NCBI GenBank assembly: GCA_043743105.1
Contig: JAYTXD010000011.1
Span: 1 to 24,000 of the forward strand
Length of the DNA stretch: 24,000 nt
From: Candidatus Saccharimonadota bacterium
GTDB taxonomy: Bacteria; Patescibacteriota; Saccharimonadia; Saccharimonadales; JACDBH01
Direction of reading: 5' to 3'
The translations under genes were made by a program, and so were the position numbers. The notes beneath the pieces were generated by a model, which had not been told where the DNA came from, searched no databases, and saw only the letters and a list, made by a program, of their open reading frames with translations. Positions 5,131 through 10,871 of this stretch are shown piece after piece. Position 1 is the first letter of the stretch, and every line of letters begins with the position of its first letter.

Positions 5131-5535
5131 ATGGATCAACATGCAACCACTCAGGTTACGCCAAATGGCCTCAAAGTGCTATGTATCGAAGATGAGTTTT
5201 TTATTAGTGAGCTTTACGACCGTGCGCTCCGCAAAGTAGGCTACAACGTCACCAATGCGCTCAATGGCAATGACGGGCTAGAGCTTGCCAAGACAGATAT
5301 GTATGATATTATCCTGCTTGACCTAATGGTACCAGGCATGACAGGTATCGAAATTCTTAAAATCTTACGTGATCCACTCCAAACCAAAGAGATTCATTCT
5401 AAGATTATTATAACCACCAACCTAGTACAGGACGAAGAGGACCGTAAGGCTATAGAAAGTCATGCAGACGGCTATATTATAAAGGCCGACATTACACCAA
5501 AAGAACTCGTGGCGTTTCTTGAAAAGCTTCGATAG
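5131..5535 (+). CDS. Single-domain (CheY-like) response regulator receiver
   Basis: 134 aa with a receiver fold pattern (VLCIEDE...IILLDLMVPGMTG...KIIITT) and no output domain. SD sequence TAGGAG lies upstream, and the start is 2 nt after the kinase stop. Confidence 0.9.
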   Translation: MDQHATTQVTPNGLKVLCIEDEFFISELYDRALRKVGYNVTNALNGNDGLELAKTDMYDIILLDLMVPGMTGIEILKILRDPLQTKEIHSKIIITTNLVQDEEDRKAIESHADGYIIKADITPKELVAFLEKLR

Positions 5536-5618
5536 CCATCACCTTAGAGCCTAAGTGGTACATAGTAGTAAAATATGCTAAAATTGTCTCTGTTATTAGC
5601 GTAATATTGCAATTAAAA

Positions 5619-5648
5619 GGTTTCGTCGTCTATCGGTTAGGACACCAG
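5619..5648 (+). pseudogene. Truncated 5' fragment of tRNA-Glu (acceptor 5' strand, D arm and start of anticodon stem)
   Basis: GGTTTCGTCGTCTATCGGTTAGGACACCAG matches bases 1-30 of the intact tRNA at 5744 in 28 of 30 positions. I found no matching T arm or acceptor 3' strand downstream. Confidence 0.6.
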
Positions 5649-5743
5649 CCATTCGTTGCTTGCAACGAAAAATAAAGTACACATCCTGGTCAGGATGAGA
5701 ACATTACAATCAAATACAATAAAATGTTACACGTATGACATAA

Positions 5744-5818
5744 GGTCCCGTCGTCTATCGGTTAGGACACCAGGTTCTCATCCTGGTAAGAGGAGTTCGA
5801 CTCTCCTCGGGATCACCA
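5744..5818 (+). tRNA. tRNA-Glu (anticodon CUC), 3' CCA encoded
   Basis: Hand-folded cloverleaf. Acceptor GGTCCCG/CGGGATC, D arm GTCT-ATCGGTTA-GGAC, anticodon arm CCAGG-TTCTCAT-CCTGG, T arm AGGAG-TTCGACT-CTCCT, then discriminator A and CCA. The D-arm sequence is typical of bacterial tRNA-Glu. Confidence 0.92.
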
Positions 5819-5925
5819 TTGTTTGAAACATAGTCAAATTTTAAAGTCAGTAATTTTATGCCTGCTTCATGAATTATATCTTCCGTGTTCATTTCCTACT
5901 CCTTATATAATATGTGATGAATTTG

Positions 5926-5951
5926 AAAGAGTGCCGATTTAAGCACTCTTT
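5926..5951 (-). terminator. Hairpin terminator directly after the DUF3892 stop codon (possibly bidirectional)
   Basis: 9-bp perfect stem AAAGAGTGC/GCACTCTTT with an 8-nt loop. It is T-rich on the 3' side of the plus strand, and there is a partial T run on the minus strand. Confidence 0.55.
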
Positions 5952-5952
5952 T

Positions 5953-6231
5953 CTAGCACGGTGGCAAGCTCAAGAGGTTGTTTGCCTCTGAAGCGTCGGG
6001 CCGTGTCTGCAGAAAACGAATATTTCCGTTATCTTTTATGTCACAGATAGCCTGGTTGCCATCCTCAGCAACATATGCGTATAGGCCCTTTGCTTCGAGT
6101 TGGCTTATGAGCGATTTCCGTTCGATAACGCTAAACGTACCGTCTGAAGTGTCCGAGGTACCATAGTGGCTTATCGCTTCATAGCGACTATCACGATCAG
6201 GTTTGCGGATATGCGTAATTCTAATTCCCAT
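5953..6231 (-). CDS. DUF3892 domain protein
   Basis: 92 aa. ITHIRKPDRDSRYEAISHYG near the N-terminus and C-terminal NNLLSLPPC match my recollection of the DUF3892 signature. A strong SD (AAGGAG) lies upstream on the minus strand. Confidence 0.65.
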   Translation of the reverse strand: MGIRITHIRKPDRDSRYEAISHYGTSDTSDGTFSVIERKSLISQLEAKGLYAYVAEDGNQAICDIKDNGNIRFLQTRPDASEANNLLSLPPC

Positions 6232-6395
6232 AGTTTTACTCCTTTCCCCTTGTTATTAATTTTTGATGATTATTATGAAGTATGTGTTTTCTCGCAGTAA
6301 ACGCAACTTCCGTGAACTCCCGCAGTACTATCATGCGATTAGTTCTAAGAAAAGCATAGTTTATTTTTACTAGTTTGTCTAGTGTTTACACTATA

Positions 6396-6424
6396 TTTAC
6401 AATTTACACCAAATGCGCTACAAT
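6396..6424 (+). promoter_or_regulatory. Putative promoter of the S24 repressor operon: TTTACA, 17 nt spacer, TACAAT, with the -10 ending 7 nt before the ATG (leaderless)
   Basis: TTTACA at 6396-6401, a 17-nt spacer, TACAAT at 6419-6424, ATG at 6432. No SD sequence. It is embedded in three TTTACA repeats. Confidence 0.45.
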
Positions 6425-6431
6425 TATATTC

Positions 6432-7076
6432 ATGAATGAAATCCAAGAAAAGCTACTCAAGCTAGCCGATAAGAGTGACTTGTCACGTATACCGCTCCGT
6501 ACAATTGCTGAAATGTTAGATAAGCCAAATATGAGTCCGGGTGTGTTGCAGCACCATTTTGCGCAGCTCGAGAAAAAGAAACTTCTTTTTGTCGATCGTA
6601 AAGCAAAAACGCAGCAACTTGGTTCTGACACAAGCGATGACAGATTCTATGTTATTCCTATTGTTGGAATGGCAAGCTGTGGACCCGCAAACCAATTTGC
6701 TGATGAAACTGTAGAAGGATATTTGAATATATCAAAGAGCAGCCTTAGAGCTAAAGGTAAGTTATTTGCAGTTAGAGCTACAGGTAAGTCTATGGATTAT
6801 GCGAATGTTCCAACGCCAAACGGCCTCACGGCCTCAATTGAGGATGGAGACTACGCCATAGTTGATACATATTTCACTGAGGTAAATGACAATGTTGGTA
6901 GGTATGTAGTATCAATCATTAATGGTCTTGCGAATATTAAAAAGCTCGCAAAGCGTGCATATGATTACGCACTGGTCTCAGAATCAACCAACACATTCGC
7001 TTATCCGCCAATTATAATTCACAAAGATGATGATTACTTGATAAATGGGCGTGTCATAGCAGTGGTTAAAGGATAG
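6432..7076 (+). CDS. LexA-family transcriptional repressor with an S24 autopeptidase domain
   Basis: N-terminal winged-helix LexA-like region (RTIAEMLDKPNMSPGVLQHHFAQLEKKKLL). The cleavage-site region IPIVGMASCGPA aligns with LexA LPLVGRVAAGEP. Catalytic Ser is in ATGKSM and Lys in ANIKKL. I prefer ATG 6432 to the TTG at 6375 because the first 19 codons of the longer ORF look non-protein-like and overlap the promoter. Confidence 0.85.
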   Translation: MNEIQEKLLKLADKSDLSRIPLRTIAEMLDKPNMSPGVLQHHFAQLEKKKLLFVDRKAKTQQLGSDTSDDRFYVIPIVGMASCGPANQFADETVEGYLNISKSSLRAKGKLFAVRATGKSMDYANVPTPNGLTASIEDGDYAIVDTYFTEVNDNVGRYVVSIINGLANIKKLAKRAYDYALVSESTNTFAYPPIIIHKDDDYLINGRVIAVVKG

Positions 7077-7078
7077 CT

Positions 7079-7723
7079 ATGAAAAAAGAAATAATCGAAC
7101 AGCTATTTGTAAGTTTTGAGGATATAAAGGAAGAACAGTCTGGCATAGAGTACTGGAGTGCGCGTACACTGCAAGAATTACTTGGATACACTAAATGGGA
7201 GAACTTTGAACGGGTAATACTTCGTGCTCAAGAGAGTGCAAAAAATAGCGATTATGCCATAGACGATCATTTTCTTAAAGTCAGGAAGATGATTGAAACC
7301 GGCAAAGGCGCCCAACGTGAAGTGATTGACTATAGTCTTACACGCTACGCATGCTACTTGATTGCCCAAAATGGTGACCCGTCTAAATCACAAGTTGCTT
7401 TTGCGCAAACATACTTTGCGGTACAGACACGCAAGCAAGAAATAATCGAACAACGACTGCTAGACATCGAACGCGTCGAAGCACGAGAAAAGTTATCCCA
7501 AACAGAAAAGAAATTATCAGGCGTAAAAGACCTGAAAGGCCAACGATTTATCTCTGGCGAACACGTTGCAAACAACAAGGCAGTACGTAAGATATTGGGT
7601 GAGCGTGGGGTTAAGCCTGAATTTCTACCTGCAGGTGAAGATGTAAAAAAGGTGCAACGTAAACTTGTAAGCGACGAAAAGAAGGCTGCAAAATTACAAG
7701 TGGATAGGAAAAAGAAATCATGA
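7079..7723 (+). CDS. dinD: DNA damage-inducible protein D homolog
   Basis: The stretch from [13 protein letters not shown]... through ...[35 protein letters not shown] closely parallels my recollection of E. coli DinD (WSARQLGKLLGY...LSRYACYLVVQNGDP...GQTYFAIQTRRQE). SD AAAGGA lies upstream, and the start is 2 nt after the repressor stop. Confidence 0.8.
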
Positions 7724-8874
7724 ACGAAATAATTTGCCCACACTGTAAAAAAGCATTTAAGATCGACGAAGCAGGTTTTGCCAACATTTTAAAACAAGTT
7801 CGAGATGGTCAGTTCGAAGCTGAACTGCACGAACGGATCGAGAACGCTGTAGCACTAGCAGAAGCCAAAACTAAAAATGAGCTGCTATCCGAAATTGCAC
7901 GTAAAGATACAGAAGTTTTAAAGCTGCAAGCCAAAGTAGACGCCACGGAGACAGAAAAAAAGCTTGCTGTTACAGAGGCTGTAAACTCGGTCGAAAAACA
8001 ACGTGATGAACTAGTTGGCAAGCTAGAAGTAAAAGAACACGAACAAAAACTACTCGAATCTTCATTAAAAGAAAAATACGAATCTGAGTTGAAAACCAAA
8101 GATGAGATGATTGCGCAGTACAAAGATATGAAGATGAAACTTTCTACAAAAATGCTCGGCGAAACACTAGAACTTCATTGTGAAATTGCTTTTGCCCAAC
8201 TTCGTTCTACGGGTGCTTTCAAGAATGCTGAGTTTGGCAAAGACAACGATTCTAGCAGTGGTAGCAAAGGAGATTACATCTACCGCGAAACAGATGACAA
8301 CGGCGTTGAGTTCATCTCAATTATGTTTGAGATGAAGAACGAAGCCGATGAAACCGTTGCCAAGCACAAAAATAAAGACTTTTTCAAAGAACTAGACAAG
8401 GACCGGAACGAAAAGAAATGTGAATACGCTGTACTTGTGAGCACCCTAGAAGCGGATAGCGAACTATATACTGGGATAACTGATGTATCACATGAATTTC
8501 CAAAGATGTACGTTGTGCGGCCCCAATTTTTTATTCCTATATTGACCGTGCTGCGCAATACCGCATTCAGCTCACTGCAGTACAAGACCGAGCTTGCACT
8601 TGTTAGAAACCAAGAACTTGATATCACCAGGTTTGAAGACACAGTTAAGGATGTCGCGAAATATCTTGAGGACAATTACGACTCTGCACACAACAAATTT
8701 GGTAATGCTATTACTTCAATAGATGACGCTATCAAGAAGCTAGAAAAGACGAAAGAATTTCTTCTAGGCTCGGAAAAGAACCTGCGACTCGCTAGTAGTA
8801 AGACGGATGAACTGACCGTGAAAAAACTAACCCGTGGCAACCCTACCATGCAAGCTAAGTTCGGTGAGTTATAG
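7720..8874 (+). CDS. DUF2130-like protein: N-terminal CxxC knuckle, long coiled coil, C-terminal putative PD-(D/E)xK-type nuclease core
   Basis: [23 protein letters not shown] start, roughly 130 aa rich in E, K and L, then GDYIYRE...[10 protein letters not shown] (a D...ExK pattern). The start overlaps the dinD stop (ATGA). The family name is from memory and the nuclease assignment is an inference. Confidence 0.6.
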
Positions 8875-8918
8875 CCCCCGGTAAAACAAAACCTGTCTTT
8901 TTGACTTACTGGGGGCTA
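8872..8918 (+). repeat. Inverted repeat / hairpin built from two TATAGCCCCC copies, overlapping the DUF2130 stop codon
   Basis: TAGCCCCCGGTAA (8872-8884) pairs with TTACTGGGGGCTA (8906-8918): 13 bp with one G-T wobble and a 21-nt loop. There is no U-tail after the stem. Confidence 0.6.
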
Positions 8919-8982
8919 TAGAGGTAAAAAGGTTTTTACGGTATATACTATGCTAAAGCTTAACTACTAATATAAGGAACCT

Positions 8983-10650
8983 ATGCAAGACCAACAAGAT
9001 ACTGAACCCCAGGCACAGCCCATAAGTAAGACCCTCGAATTGCAGCGAACTCCAGGGACAGCGCATCCGCAGGCGATGCAGGCTTCCTCGGCCGTTAAAA
9101 AAGGTGGGATTGCTCACAATCTAGTCCCAATTTGTATCTTTTTAGTAGCTTTGGGCATCGGCGGTGCAACCTATGCTCTAGTCAAAAGATATACCAACAA
9201 CGTACCCACAACTTCATCCAAAAAGACTGTTGTAGGCTCGATCTTGCTGGACCGCACACTTCTACGTTACACAGAAAACGCCGCTTATGAAAAAGATGGA
9301 AGTGGCGCAACCAAAACAACCACCAATGCCGACGGAAGCACCAATTTTGTACGCAAAAAATCTTTTGTTGTGACGATAGAAAAAAACGGCTTCAATAAAG
9401 ATATTACGCTGGACGATAAAACAATTTCTTTTGGCGCAACAGCTGACAACAAATTTTTTGCACTATCCTGCACGGTGCCAGCCCTTGGTGCAGTAGGAGG
9501 TAATGATGCGACCTATACGGCACAGCTCTACAGTACAAACGGCACGAAAACGAACGCAATTACATGGAAGCAGCAGAGCGTAACGGCACCAGCCAGTGAT
9601 GACACCTGCCAGTATAGCCAAGGTTCCTTTAATGTTGTCGGAACACGCTTTGACCTTAGTTCGCGCGGCTATGGTCGGGAAGCCGTCGATGCCCTAAACT
9701 ATAAAGTTGTCTACGCCAAGCTCGATGGCACAAAACAAGATGTCGATACTGAGACTTTGAGCGATATAGACGTCCCGCTAGGTGTATCGCCTGACAAAAA
9801 AGTATTTATGTATAACCGTATTAGTGCAAAGCAATCTTTAGATGGCTGTACCGAATCAATAGCTCTTTCATATAAAATCCCAGACTTTTCTGGCCCAATC
9901 AACGAGCTCCATGCTTATAATCTTGCTACTAAATTAGACACGCTTGTTGGCACCGATAAATCGTTGTCAGCACCCTCGCACGAGATTGTGCTGGATACAA
10001 TTGGATACTTCTCAACAGATAGCAGCCGTTATTACCTCCGAGAGGGTGGGCATGGCGGCTGCAGGGGCGGCGACAGCAAACCAATACGCATTGCATATAT
10101 AGACCTCAAGACAAATAGCCTAGCTGTAATCGGCTCGCCAGAGGGCAAACAGTATTCGGGCTATTGCTTTACCGAAAATGGTGCATACGCGCTAGAATAT
10201 GGGGCTTTGGATTATTTTAACGGAGCAACACCCGCGCTCGAACCAGGGATGCCTAGCATACTCGACACCTCAACAGGCAAGACATATGAAGCTACCGATA
10301 AAAACCTAGGGTGCGATTACGCAACACATGCCAATAACAGATTTGTTGGCTTCAGCAAAATAACCACGATAGACAAAAATAATTACCCTCAAGACAAATT
10401 ACTGCTTGGGCTCAGTGTATTTAGCCCTAATGATAAAACATCGAGATCCATCACATTTAAAATACCCCTCGAGCTGGACACGCACTCCATCAATTTCACA
10501 TCCTTTTCAGCAGCCGAAGATATTGGCTATATTAACCGTATCGGAAACTATGACAGCCACACTAGTATAGCTACACCAGTTCCAACCCTTATATTCGACT
10601 TAAAGTCTGGTAATAGCCAAGAAGTACCTTACGCACAAGTCGTATTATAA
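8983..10650 (+). CDS. Hypothetical membrane-anchored protein with a large predicted extracytoplasmic domain
   Basis: 555-aa ORF with SD AAGGA 5 nt upstream. A polar N-terminal tail is followed by one TM helix (LVPICIFLVALGIGGATYALV) and then about 480 aa rich in T, S, D, G and N. I recognise no motif. A strong terminator follows. Confidence 0.7.
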   Translation: MQDQQDTEPQAQPISKTLELQRTPGTAHPQAMQASSAVKKGGIAHNLVPICIFLVALGIGGATYALVKRYTNNVPTTSSKKTVVGSILLDRTLLRYTENAAYEKDGSGATKTTTNADGSTNFVRKKSFVVTIEKNGFNKDITLDDKTISFGATADNKFFALSCTVPALGAVGGNDATYTAQLYSTNGTKTNAITWKQQSVTAPASDDTCQYSQGSFNVVGTRFDLSSRGYGREAVDALNYKVVYAKLDGTKQDVDTETLSDIDVPLGVSPDKKVFMYNRISAKQSLDGCTESIALSYKIPDFSGPINELHAYNLATKLDTLVGTDKSLSAPSHEIVLDTIGYFSTDSSRYYLREGGHGGCRGGDSKPIRIAYIDLKTNSLAVIGSPEGKQYSGYCFTENGAYALEYGALDYFNGATPALEPGMPSILDTSTGKTYEATDKNLGCDYATHANNRFVGFSKITTIDKNNYPQDKLLLGLSVFSPNDKTSRSITFKIPLELDTHSINFTSFSAAEDIGYINRIGNYDSHTSIATPVPTLIFDLKSGNSQEVPYAQVVL

Positions 10651-10694: not shown

Positions 10695-10718
10695 AAGTTT
10701 AAAATATGTTGGAGTGTT

Positions 10719-10731
10719 AGTTATAGCCCCC
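10719..10731 (+). repeat. Direct-repeat copy AGTTATAGCCCCC (partner at 8867-8879)
   Basis: Exact 13-mer shared with 8867-8879. The next 26 nt match the partner in 16 of 26 positions at equal length, both ending in CTTTTGAC. Confidence 0.5.
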
Positions 10732-10871
10732 CCAAAGACAAATACACTACTTTTGACAAGCCCTCAACTTGCGAAGGCAGTAATATTTATTACACAACAA
10801 AATACTCACTTGGGTTGGCTATGAACATTGTAAAACAGGGGCGTATGCGCCATAATACAGACTAAGTTCTT

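Follow-up and report, generated by a model that had tools for sequence, protein, structure and literature searches.

A probable DNA-damage (SOS) control locus combining lexA, a dinD-like gene and a DUF2130 gene in a Saccharibacterium

We analysed a 24,000-nucleotide (nt) stretch of DNA of a Candidatus Saccharimonadota bacterium (contig JAYTXD010000011.1, positions 1 to 24,000; referred to as the window), in which a small DUF3892 gene is divergent from an operon composed of a repressor gene (lexA), a dinD-like gene and a DUF2130 gene. The locus probably controls the DNA-damage (SOS) response of a Saccharibacterium with a tiny genome, and damage would induce the joint expression of DUF3892, LexA, DinD and DUF2130. 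An earlier reading made from the letters only (the sequence-only reading) had left three options, i.e. the SOS core of a host with a minimal genome, a prophage-remnant switch, and a defence or abortive-infection module. The first of these gives the best fit, in view of the orthology of the repressor with LexA and of the conserved repeat located upstream of its gene. The features of the locus are as follows:

5617–5648, plus strand: second copy of the tRNA-Glu 5' half, a pseudo-tRNA fragment (direct repeat, 94% identical to 5742–5773)
5744–5818, plus strand: tRNA-Glu(CTC) (ARAGORN; Rfam tRNA, 54 bits)
5953–6231, minus strand: DUF3892 small protein, 92 amino acids (aa) (PF13031, E=6.5e-8)
6353–6381, minus strand: predicted DUF3892 promoter, TAGACA-17-TATGCT (promoter scan, 9/12 matches)
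6369–6385, plus strand: operator-like element ACTAGTTTGTCTAGTGT, a putative LexA box (kept across related lexA loci)
6396–6424, plus strand: lexA promoter, TTTACA-17-TACAAT (promoter scan, top match, 10/12)
6432–7076, plus strand: LexA, Patescibacteria type, 214 aa (PF00717, E=1e-14)
7079–7723, plus strand: DinD-like Bro-N protein, 214 aa (NF008573; Bro-N)
7720–8874, plus strand: DUF2130 protein, 384 aa (PF09903, E=1.3e-74)
8870–8920, plus strand: long hairpin 3' of the DUF2130 stop (inverted repeat, 22-nt arms, 86% complementary)

The profile matches bear out all four domain assignments (DUF3892, S24, DinD and DUF2130) that the sequence-only reading had guessed. The 2-nt gap and the ATGA overlap that it described can both be read at the gene junctions: lexA and dinD meet in GGATAGCTATG (TAG stop, the two nucleotides CT, then ATG), and dinD and DUF2130 overlap as ATGA in ATCATGAAC. 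Shine-Dalgarno-like sequences, AAAGGA and AGGAAA, are placed within the upstream genes. The coordinates also agree with the proposed control region of 200 nt, extending from the start of the minus-strand DUF3892 gene (6231) to the ATG of lexA (6432).

The repressor and its control region

The mechanically delimited open reading frame (ORF) of the repressor opens at TTG 6375, and its homologues all start at ATG 6432. These homologues constitute one unbroken series, ranging from 88% down to 39% identity and all of ~205–215 aa, in which full-length proteins at 40–46% identity to the window repressor carry PF01726 (LexA_DNA_bind), and the distant members are annotated as LexA by their sources. PF00717 covers residues 76–209 of the window protein. 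Alignment of 29 family members revealed that C83-G84 (within ASCGP), S120 and K170 are invariant. The Cys-Gly site (MASCGP) pointed out previously is indeed present in the repressor, but it is not peculiar to this protein: its invariance in the 29 Patescibacteria LexA family members argues for a clade trait rather than a local oddity. Cys-Gly is, moreover, an accepted UmuD variant of the scissile bond (PMC8565304). Judging from these alignments, the repressor appears to be the LexA of Patescibacteria, and the search for LexA homologues did not turn up a second LexA-like clade from Saccharibacteria.

A tandem GTCAA/TCTAG motif, derived in this analysis from related loci, was detected less than 200 nt upstream of lexA at 57 of 86 loci, and 27 times in the remaining ~0.7 Mb. 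The window element ACTAGTTTGTCTAGTGT is nearly identical in the related loci L086, L088, L090, L092 and L093, and reads CTTTGTCAAG in L094–L103. A direct-repeat LexA motif has been attributed to Patescibacteria (PMC7739468). The window element represents the local form of the GTCAA/TCTAG repeat and is a putative LexA box. Read on the opposite strand, where related loci have T(A/T)GACA, this element contains TAGACA, the −35 of the promoter predicted for DUF3892. A palindrome in the window, TAGTGTTTACACTA (6380–6393), was also considered as an operator and was rejected, as the relatives do not conserve it.

The −10 of the lexA promoter ends 7 nt before the ATG, and no Shine-Dalgarno sequence precedes the start at 6432. 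A −10 of the TAxAAT type likewise comes within ~10 nt of the ATG in the majority of the related lexA loci shown (6–9 nt in the Saccharibacteria-type loci). Because the −10 is placed so close to the start codon, the lexA mRNA is probably leaderless.

The lexA promoters of distant Patescibacteria (L104–L171) displayed one more feature, a DnaA-box-like TGTGGAWAA located between the tandem repeat and the −35, at most 150 nt upstream of the gene, in 42 of 63 cases (59 matches in total in 470 kb). This sequence is absent from the lexA promoter of the window, whose sole copy is found at position 20602.

Recurrence of the operon and its chromosomal setting

The neighbourhoods of the LexA orthologues were read outward from lexA, with the following results (percentages are LexA identities to the window protein):

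L172, 88%: lexA→DUF2130
L086, 81%: DUF3892 divergent; lexA→DUF2130
L173, 76%: lexA→DUF2130
L174, 75%: DUF2188 divergent; lexA→Bro-N/DinD→DUF2130 (the triad of the window)
L092, 72%: lexA→DinD, then the contig end
L088, 69%: lexA→151-aa unknown protein→DUF2130
L094–L103, 45–49%: lexA→DUF2130
L090, 61%: without DUF2130
L175, 59%: without DUF2130

The order lexA→DUF2130 was observed in seven of the nine Saccharibacteria-type lexA lineages. Of the more distant lexA loci, 49 extend at least 1.5 kb downstream of the gene, and none of these has DUF2130. On the basis of these gene orders, lexA→DUF2130 appears to be a recurrent operon that admits DinD as an optional gene in the middle (window, L174 and L092). 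The three-gene unit of the sequence-only reading is borne out in part: its lexA→DUF2130 portion recurs, but the triad is not the conserved unit. A universal three-gene system was dropped from consideration, as a tblastn search of 80 species-level DUF2130 loci from all phyla detected neither S24 nor DinD within 6 kb of DUF2130, and neither all-against-all clustering nor a Pfam census of the neighbours revealed a conserved partner.

In four of the relatives (L172, L086, L173 and L088) the DUF2130 proteins share 68–77% identity and the LexA proteins 67–80%. Since the two sets of identities track each other, they indicate that in these lineages DUF2130 has probably been co-inherited with lexA.

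A link between DUF2130 and LexA that would be independent of the operon is suggested by plasmids of Bradyrhizobium. Upstream of DUF2130, pBel61, pBBta01 and pUSDA123-1 carry an identical island, GCTTGACC-N14-GTTCTAATTTTGTTCT (CTTGACC-N14-GTTCTAATTTTGTTC), amid unrelated flanks and otherwise unalignable upstream DNA. The box GTTCTAATTTTGTTC (L178 ~5864, L206 ~3908, L207 ~3920) overlaps the −10 of the DUF2130 promoter. The pattern GTTC-N7-GTTC, that of the alphaproteobacterial LexA box, has a chance expectation of ~0.008 per 270 nt. Among the sequences upstream of DUF2130 at all loci, including those of Escherichia coli, the alpha-type box was found in Bradyrhizobium only, and no Cheo-type or gamma-type SOS boxes were detected. 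The Saccharibacterial operator half-site was not found near the unlinked DUF2130 genes of Patescibacteria; there was one match within 300 nt, at a Flavobacterium locus (L036).

These observations bear on the view that the window merely shows unrelated genes packed side by side in a compact genome, with no common regulation or function. Patescibacteria genomes are gene-dense, and no partner of DUF2130 is conserved in the 80 genomes compared, which would suit such packing; nevertheless, the adjacency of lexA and DUF2130 recurs down to 45% LexA identity, in loci that differ in their DUF2130 clade and in their flanks, the start and stop codons are coupled, and Bradyrhizobium provides the independent LexA-box link. 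We therefore find fortuitous packing hardly credible.

The flanks of the window are ordinary chromosome (GluRS, DUF3048, two histidine kinase/response regulator (HK/RR) pairs, and RluB-like, Der, Pth, DprA, TopA and MurG proteins), and its closest named protein matches come from Candidatus Saccharibacteria and Saccharimonadaceae. One locus, L007, keeps the block upstream of the module (DUF4367-GluRS-DUF3048-HK-RR-tRNA-Glu(CTC)). After the tRNA, however, it contains only DUF2130, of the "lexA-linked" clade and ~150 nt downstream, without lexA, dinD or DUF3892. The same upstream block with different content after the tRNA argues that the stretch 3' of the tRNA is variable, with tRNA-Glu as the point where the conserved flank gives way to it. 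The GC content, ~0.40 across the module (5500–9000) versus 0.44–0.49 in the flanks, would fit a region that is variable or was acquired.

The position of the module next to a tRNA gene raises the question of whether it is the remnant of a prophage or integrative element inserted at tRNA-Glu, with the S24 protein as a cI-like repressor, DUF3892 as its cro-like counterpart and DinD as a Bro/Ant-type anti-repressor. Besides the tRNA and its duplicated fragment, the divergent layout would suit such an origin, as would the matches of the S24 protein to the phage repressor family phrog_4 and of the DinD-like protein to phrog_8036 and Ant, and the presence in L007 of the same tRNA-Glu locus without lexA, dinD and DUF3892. 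The "recombination-scarred tRNA" of the sequence-only reading is real in that its 5' half is duplicated (94% identity); however, the window contains no second copy of the tRNA 3' end of the kind that marks an att site, and a 5'-half fragment placed upstream does not have the geometry of integration into a tRNA 3' end. The window also contains no integrase and no phage structural or replication genes. Furthermore, DUF2130 was detected in none of 50,697 phage genomes, forms no PHROG family and occurs on only 19 of 2.9 million IMG/VR contigs; the LexA family gave only four distant matches in viral sequences; and the other lexA-DUF2130 loci have no tRNA within 7–8 kb. The suggested cI/cro-like or prophage-remnant nature of the locus has thus found no footing, and we regard it as very improbable.

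The tRNA-Glu 5'-half copy, situated 125 nt upstream of the real gene, is not called a tRNA by ARAGORN or Rfam, and is accompanied by an inverted copy of the anticodon-arm sequence (hairpin 5682–5697). At the other end of the module, the ~50-nt GC-cored hairpin TATAGCCCCC…GGGGGCTATA (8864–8920) follows DUF2130. A copy of this hairpin with 74% identity (10716–10757) follows the next gene, so that the two bracket a 555-aa orphan ORF (8983–10650), which lacks homologues at the loci of the relatives as well as Pfam, PHROG and PADLOC-relevant matches. The hairpin at 8870–8920 lacks a T-tract and was not called an intrinsic terminator. It probably marks the end of the operon, either as a possible terminator peculiar to this genome or as a possible REP-like element.

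The products of the locus and their defence context

DUF2130 has been listed in the PD-(D/E)XK superfamily (Steczkiewicz 2012, PMC3424549), so that this assignment is already published and not new here. Residues C6, C9, H153-C154-E155, D185, E204, K206 and C234 are invariant in 64 homologues, among them the CxxC (C6/C9) and the D...ExK motif (D185, E204, K206) recognized in the sequence-only reading. The AlphaFold model of the window protein (pLDDT 76, pTM 0.41) consists of an N-terminal beta-hairpin with the CxxC, a single helix (31–163), an alpha-beta-beta-beta-alpha-beta core and a C-terminal helical domain; in this model D185 opens strand 185–191, and E204 and K206 are placed on strand 197–206. 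The conserved residues and the model thus agree with the architecture that had been suggested (CxxC, ~130-aa helical stretch, PD-(D/E)xK core). Foldseek comparison with the PDB gave BstEII as the best match (E=0.04, probability 0.85), followed by MspJI, BspD6I, BamHI, Can2 and Cap4; these all have restriction-endonuclease folds, but none was matched with E<1e-3. The modelled fold is consistent with a nuclease fold, and DUF2130 may be considered a putative nuclease. Sequence searches of the PDB with the S24, DinD and DUF2130 proteins gave no match, and an exact-sequence look-up of the window DUF2130 protein returned no entry.

It was also observed that the coiled coil of DUF2130 grows by tandem helical repeat units of ~30–40 aa, while the nuclease core is near-invariant; the window protein has 384 aa, and those of Shewanella and Citrobacter reach 540–620 aa.

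DUF2130 proteins of Saccharibacteria, Bacteroidota, Proteobacteria, Actinobacteria and Firmicutes share 50–60% identity. Outside the clade, DUF2130 occurs as a lone accessory gene and is rare, being present in three of 5,426 complete E. coli genomes and in 72 of 72,556 plasmids. The commonest families among its 144 immediate neighbours in 80 genomes (ResIII, GmrSD_N, AAA_21/AAA_15, type I HsdR, DUF4011-MTES_1575 helicase-nuclease and WYL) reach a count of only five at most. Its annotated contexts are mostly of the defence type, with restriction-modification (RM), OLD or PDC-S06 genes nearby.

In E. coli ET245 (L210, 7118–10413), a tRNA-Gly/integrase island carries type I RM→OLD endonuclease→DUF2130, the last two separated by 3 nt. 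E. coli H6 (L211, 7118–10410) and a Citrobacter plasmid (L177) contain the order WYL/helix-turn-helix (HTH)-helicase-DUF4391-OLD-DUF2130-methyltransferase-type III Res. Between the ET245 island and this second context, OLD and DUF2130 are 83% and 84% identical, respectively, which argues that they travel as a pair between type I RM and type III DISARM-like islands. The translationally coupled OLD→DUF2130 pair is a candidate two-gene defence cassette. A full-length PDC-S06 ATPase adjoins DUF2130 in a Saccharibacteria-like contig (L081, 5368–7983; E=2e-191) and in a Lactococcus cremoris plasmid (L176, 8389–10623; E=5e-245). Directly upstream of lexA itself, OLD/GajA-like ATPases, type I/ISP/MmeI RM or AbiH genes were found at seven loci (L086, L088, L172, L173, L174, L175 and L097).

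The DinD-like protein scored 242.2 bits against NCBIfam NF008573 (cut-off 242). Its residues 1–149 align to positions 1–155 of the 288 in this model, together with a short C-terminal stretch, and on this evidence it appears to be a borderline, shortened member of the DinD family (214 aa). It shares 72–80% identity with the counterpart in L174 and 69% with that in L092, both of which occupy the same position in the operon. In E. coli, dinD is an SOS gene whose product antagonises RecA filaments; the inhibition of such filaments or of strand exchange is known from E. coli DinD only. A search of the literature on DinD yielded no further useful information. The window dinD is probably also under LexA control, judging from its location inside the lexA operon, 2 nt after lexA. 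According to PADLOC 2.0 it is the only product of the module with a match (PDC-S13, a single-gene candidate, E=8e-79); S24, DUF2130 and DUF3892 had none. The N-terminal Bro-N/DinD domain additionally matches the N-terminus of a 717-position model of a type I RM specificity subunit (PDLC03083, E=5e-39), which implies that DinD-like domains are fused to HsdS in some systems.

The slot divergent from lexA is occupied by DUF3892 in the window and, at 79% and 32% identity, in L086/L087 and L141/L144, respectively, and by DUF2188 in L090/L091 and L174. The divergent small genes of L088, L172, L173, L175 and L097 could not be assigned to any family even at E≤1. DUF3892 and DUF2188 have been described as predicted defence genes and singled out as divergent cargo of the damage-responsive CapH/CapP repressors (Lau et al. 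2022, bioRxiv 10.1101/2022.04.27.489752). By analogy, the DUF3892 gene of the window would be damage-induced.

Weighing of the SOS interpretation and comparison with known systems

If the locus functions as an SOS control locus, LexA would bind the tandem-repeat operator in the 200-nt bidirectional control region and thereby repress two promoters, that of its own, probably leaderless, lexA-dinD-DUF2130 operon and that of the divergent DUF3892 gene. DNA damage or phage replication would generate RecA filaments on single-stranded DNA (ssDNA), these would provoke self-cleavage of LexA at Cys83-Gly84, and all four genes would be derepressed jointly. The DinD-like protein may then act on RecA filaments or on DNA, and the putative PD-(D/E)xK nuclease DUF2130 may cut DNA. 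The identities of the genes, their tight coupling, the recurrence of the operon and the conservation of the control element and of the catalytic residues were observed directly; the binding of LexA to the element, the dependence on RecA, the co-transcription of the operon and the nuclease activity are inferred. In evolutionary terms, lexA→DUF2130 would be the ancestral, vertically inherited core of the operon in Saccharibacteria. Its cargo would be exchangeable, comprising DinD in the middle, the gene in the divergent slot and also the DUF2130 allele itself.

Several observations weigh against this interpretation. First, the window repressor aligns to TIGR00498 (lexA) over residues 22–212 at 51.4 bits and so fails the equivalog cut-off of 110.95 for this model, which was built mainly on classical phyla; nor was its N-terminal domain called as PF01726 by Pfam. 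Secondly, the putative LexA box doubles as the divergent −35, and part of its conservation may be independent of LexA. The ACTAGTTTGTCTAGTGT element is a single copy within the 24-kb window, where no further copy of the motif was found, and the motif is absent upstream of the DUF2130 genes unlinked to lexA (L001–L080, L081, L084 and L085). Thirdly, the window DUF2130 is only 61–64% identical to the copies of its closest lexA relatives, versus 87% (L084), 79% (L081) and 73% (L085) for copies unlinked to lexA, and the L174 protein belongs to a third clade. This argues that the allele downstream of lexA has probably been replaced horizontally, on at least two occasions. Finally, the locus is not syntenic core: its flanks differ in every relative and usually contain RM, OLD or abortive-infection (Abi) genes, as expected of an island-borne module.

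Such flanks lead to the main competing explanation, a self-contained mobile defence or abortive-infection module, in which the LexA-like protein would be a dedicated sensor-regulator (cf. CapH/CapP and BrxR) distinct from a housekeeping LexA, and RecA filaments arising from phage replication would switch on DUF2130, DinD and DUF3892. The RM, OLD/GajA-like or AbiH genes adjoining the lexA-DUF2130 type of locus in seven cases accord with it, and so do (i) the rarity of DUF2130 as an accessory gene, occurring in E. coli as the OLD→DUF2130 pair inside RM islands, (ii) the PDC-S06 gene adjoining DUF2130 in L081 and in the Lactococcus plasmid, (iii) the PDC-S13 match of DinD, (iv) the exchange of DUF2130 alleles, and (v) the GC dip to 0.40, from 0.44–0.47 in the flanks. 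However, the repressor family behaves throughout Patescibacteria as a single lineage of LexA orthologues that share their promoter/operator design, and the homologue search revealed no second LexA-like clade from Saccharibacteria. Moreover, of the four proteins only DinD matches a PADLOC model, and the commonest family among the 144 DUF2130 neighbours reaches only five. We consider a dedicated module of this kind unlikely. The defence or abortive-infection idea of the sequence-only reading as such receives circumstantial support from the PDC-S13 match, the RM/OLD/PDC-S06 neighbours and the CapH/CapP cargo families.

Under the SOS interpretation, the output of the locus may be RmuC-like repair or recombination, or else may be directed against phages. 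Its setting leans to conflict, because of the rarity of DUF2130 within species, its carriage on plasmids, its RM/OLD/PDC-S06 neighbours and the replacement of its alleles. A bolder scheme, which we put forward only tentatively, is that DUF2130 is a widespread damage- or phage-triggered defence nuclease, for which Saccharibacterial LexA has been recruited as a sensor. In these ultra-small epibionts the SOS response would then be largely immune or abortive (DUF2130, DinD/PDC-S13, DUF3892/DUF2188) and not directed at repair.

A literature search returned no paper on a lexA-DUF2130 link, on the function or regulation of DUF2130, or on lexA operons of Saccharibacteria. DUF2130, an uncharacterised and unusually conserved family, gains a first regulatory handle, with two independent candidate links to LexA (the operon of Saccharibacteria and the SOS box of Bradyrhizobium) and the enterobacterial OLD→DUF2130 pair as a third lead. 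The locus also outlines the possible SOS content of reduced-genome Patescibacteria, and would add LexA to CapH/CapP as a damage-cleavable repressor over DUF3892/DUF2188 cargo.

In its architecture the locus varies on known SOS loci and damage-regulated defence operons, and does not constitute a new category. The divergent arrangement of lexA and a small damage-induced gene is familiar from other SOS loci (yneA in Bacillus subtilis, chiZ in Mycobacterium tuberculosis), and lexA-dinF of E. coli is an example of an autoregulated lexA with a co-transcribed gene. With such classical loci the window shares an S24 repressor of the self-cleaving type, an operator-like element in its own promoter region (as predicted here), a small divergent gene, presumably damage-inducible genes in the same transcription unit, and a relative of the E. 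coli SOS gene dinD. It differs in the Cys-Gly site, in an operator that would be a tandem repeat rather than a palindrome, in the probably leaderless lexA mRNA, and in the cargo, which consists of the putative DUF2130 nuclease, a short DinD and DUF3892, and not of dinF, yneA or translesion polymerases. Loci of the window type, in addition, border defence islands and exchange their cargo horizontally.

In CapH/CapP (and also ImmR/ImmA and DdrO/IrrE), as in the window, a cleavable repressor is divergent from an operon of cargo genes and responds to DNA damage (presumed for the window), and the CapH/CapP cargo families DUF3892 and DUF2188 are those found divergent from lexA in the window and its relatives. 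CapH/CapP, however, are two proteins, an HTH repressor and an ssDNA-activated metallopeptidase, whereas the window has a single S24 autoprotease with a probable dependence on RecA; and CapH/CapP are a dedicated regulator, whereas the window repressor appears to be the LexA orthologue of its lineage.

The enterobacterial OLD→DUF2130 cassette (ET245, H6 and the Citrobacter plasmid) carries a DUF2130 ~60% identical to that of the window, and OLD-like ATPases are also found ~0.5–0.9 kb upstream of lexA in L086, L088 and L172. It differs in having neither lexA nor a gamma-type SOS box, and in the translational coupling of DUF2130 to OLD (3-nt gap); an OLD gene is absent from the window. RmuC, finally, has a coiled coil followed by a restriction-endonuclease-like core, and the AlphaFold model of the window DUF2130 similarly places a long helical/coiled-coil N-terminal region before a nuclease-type core. 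The two are told apart by the extra CxxC hairpin and C-terminal helical domain of DUF2130, which gave no RmuC match in Pfam at E<0.01.

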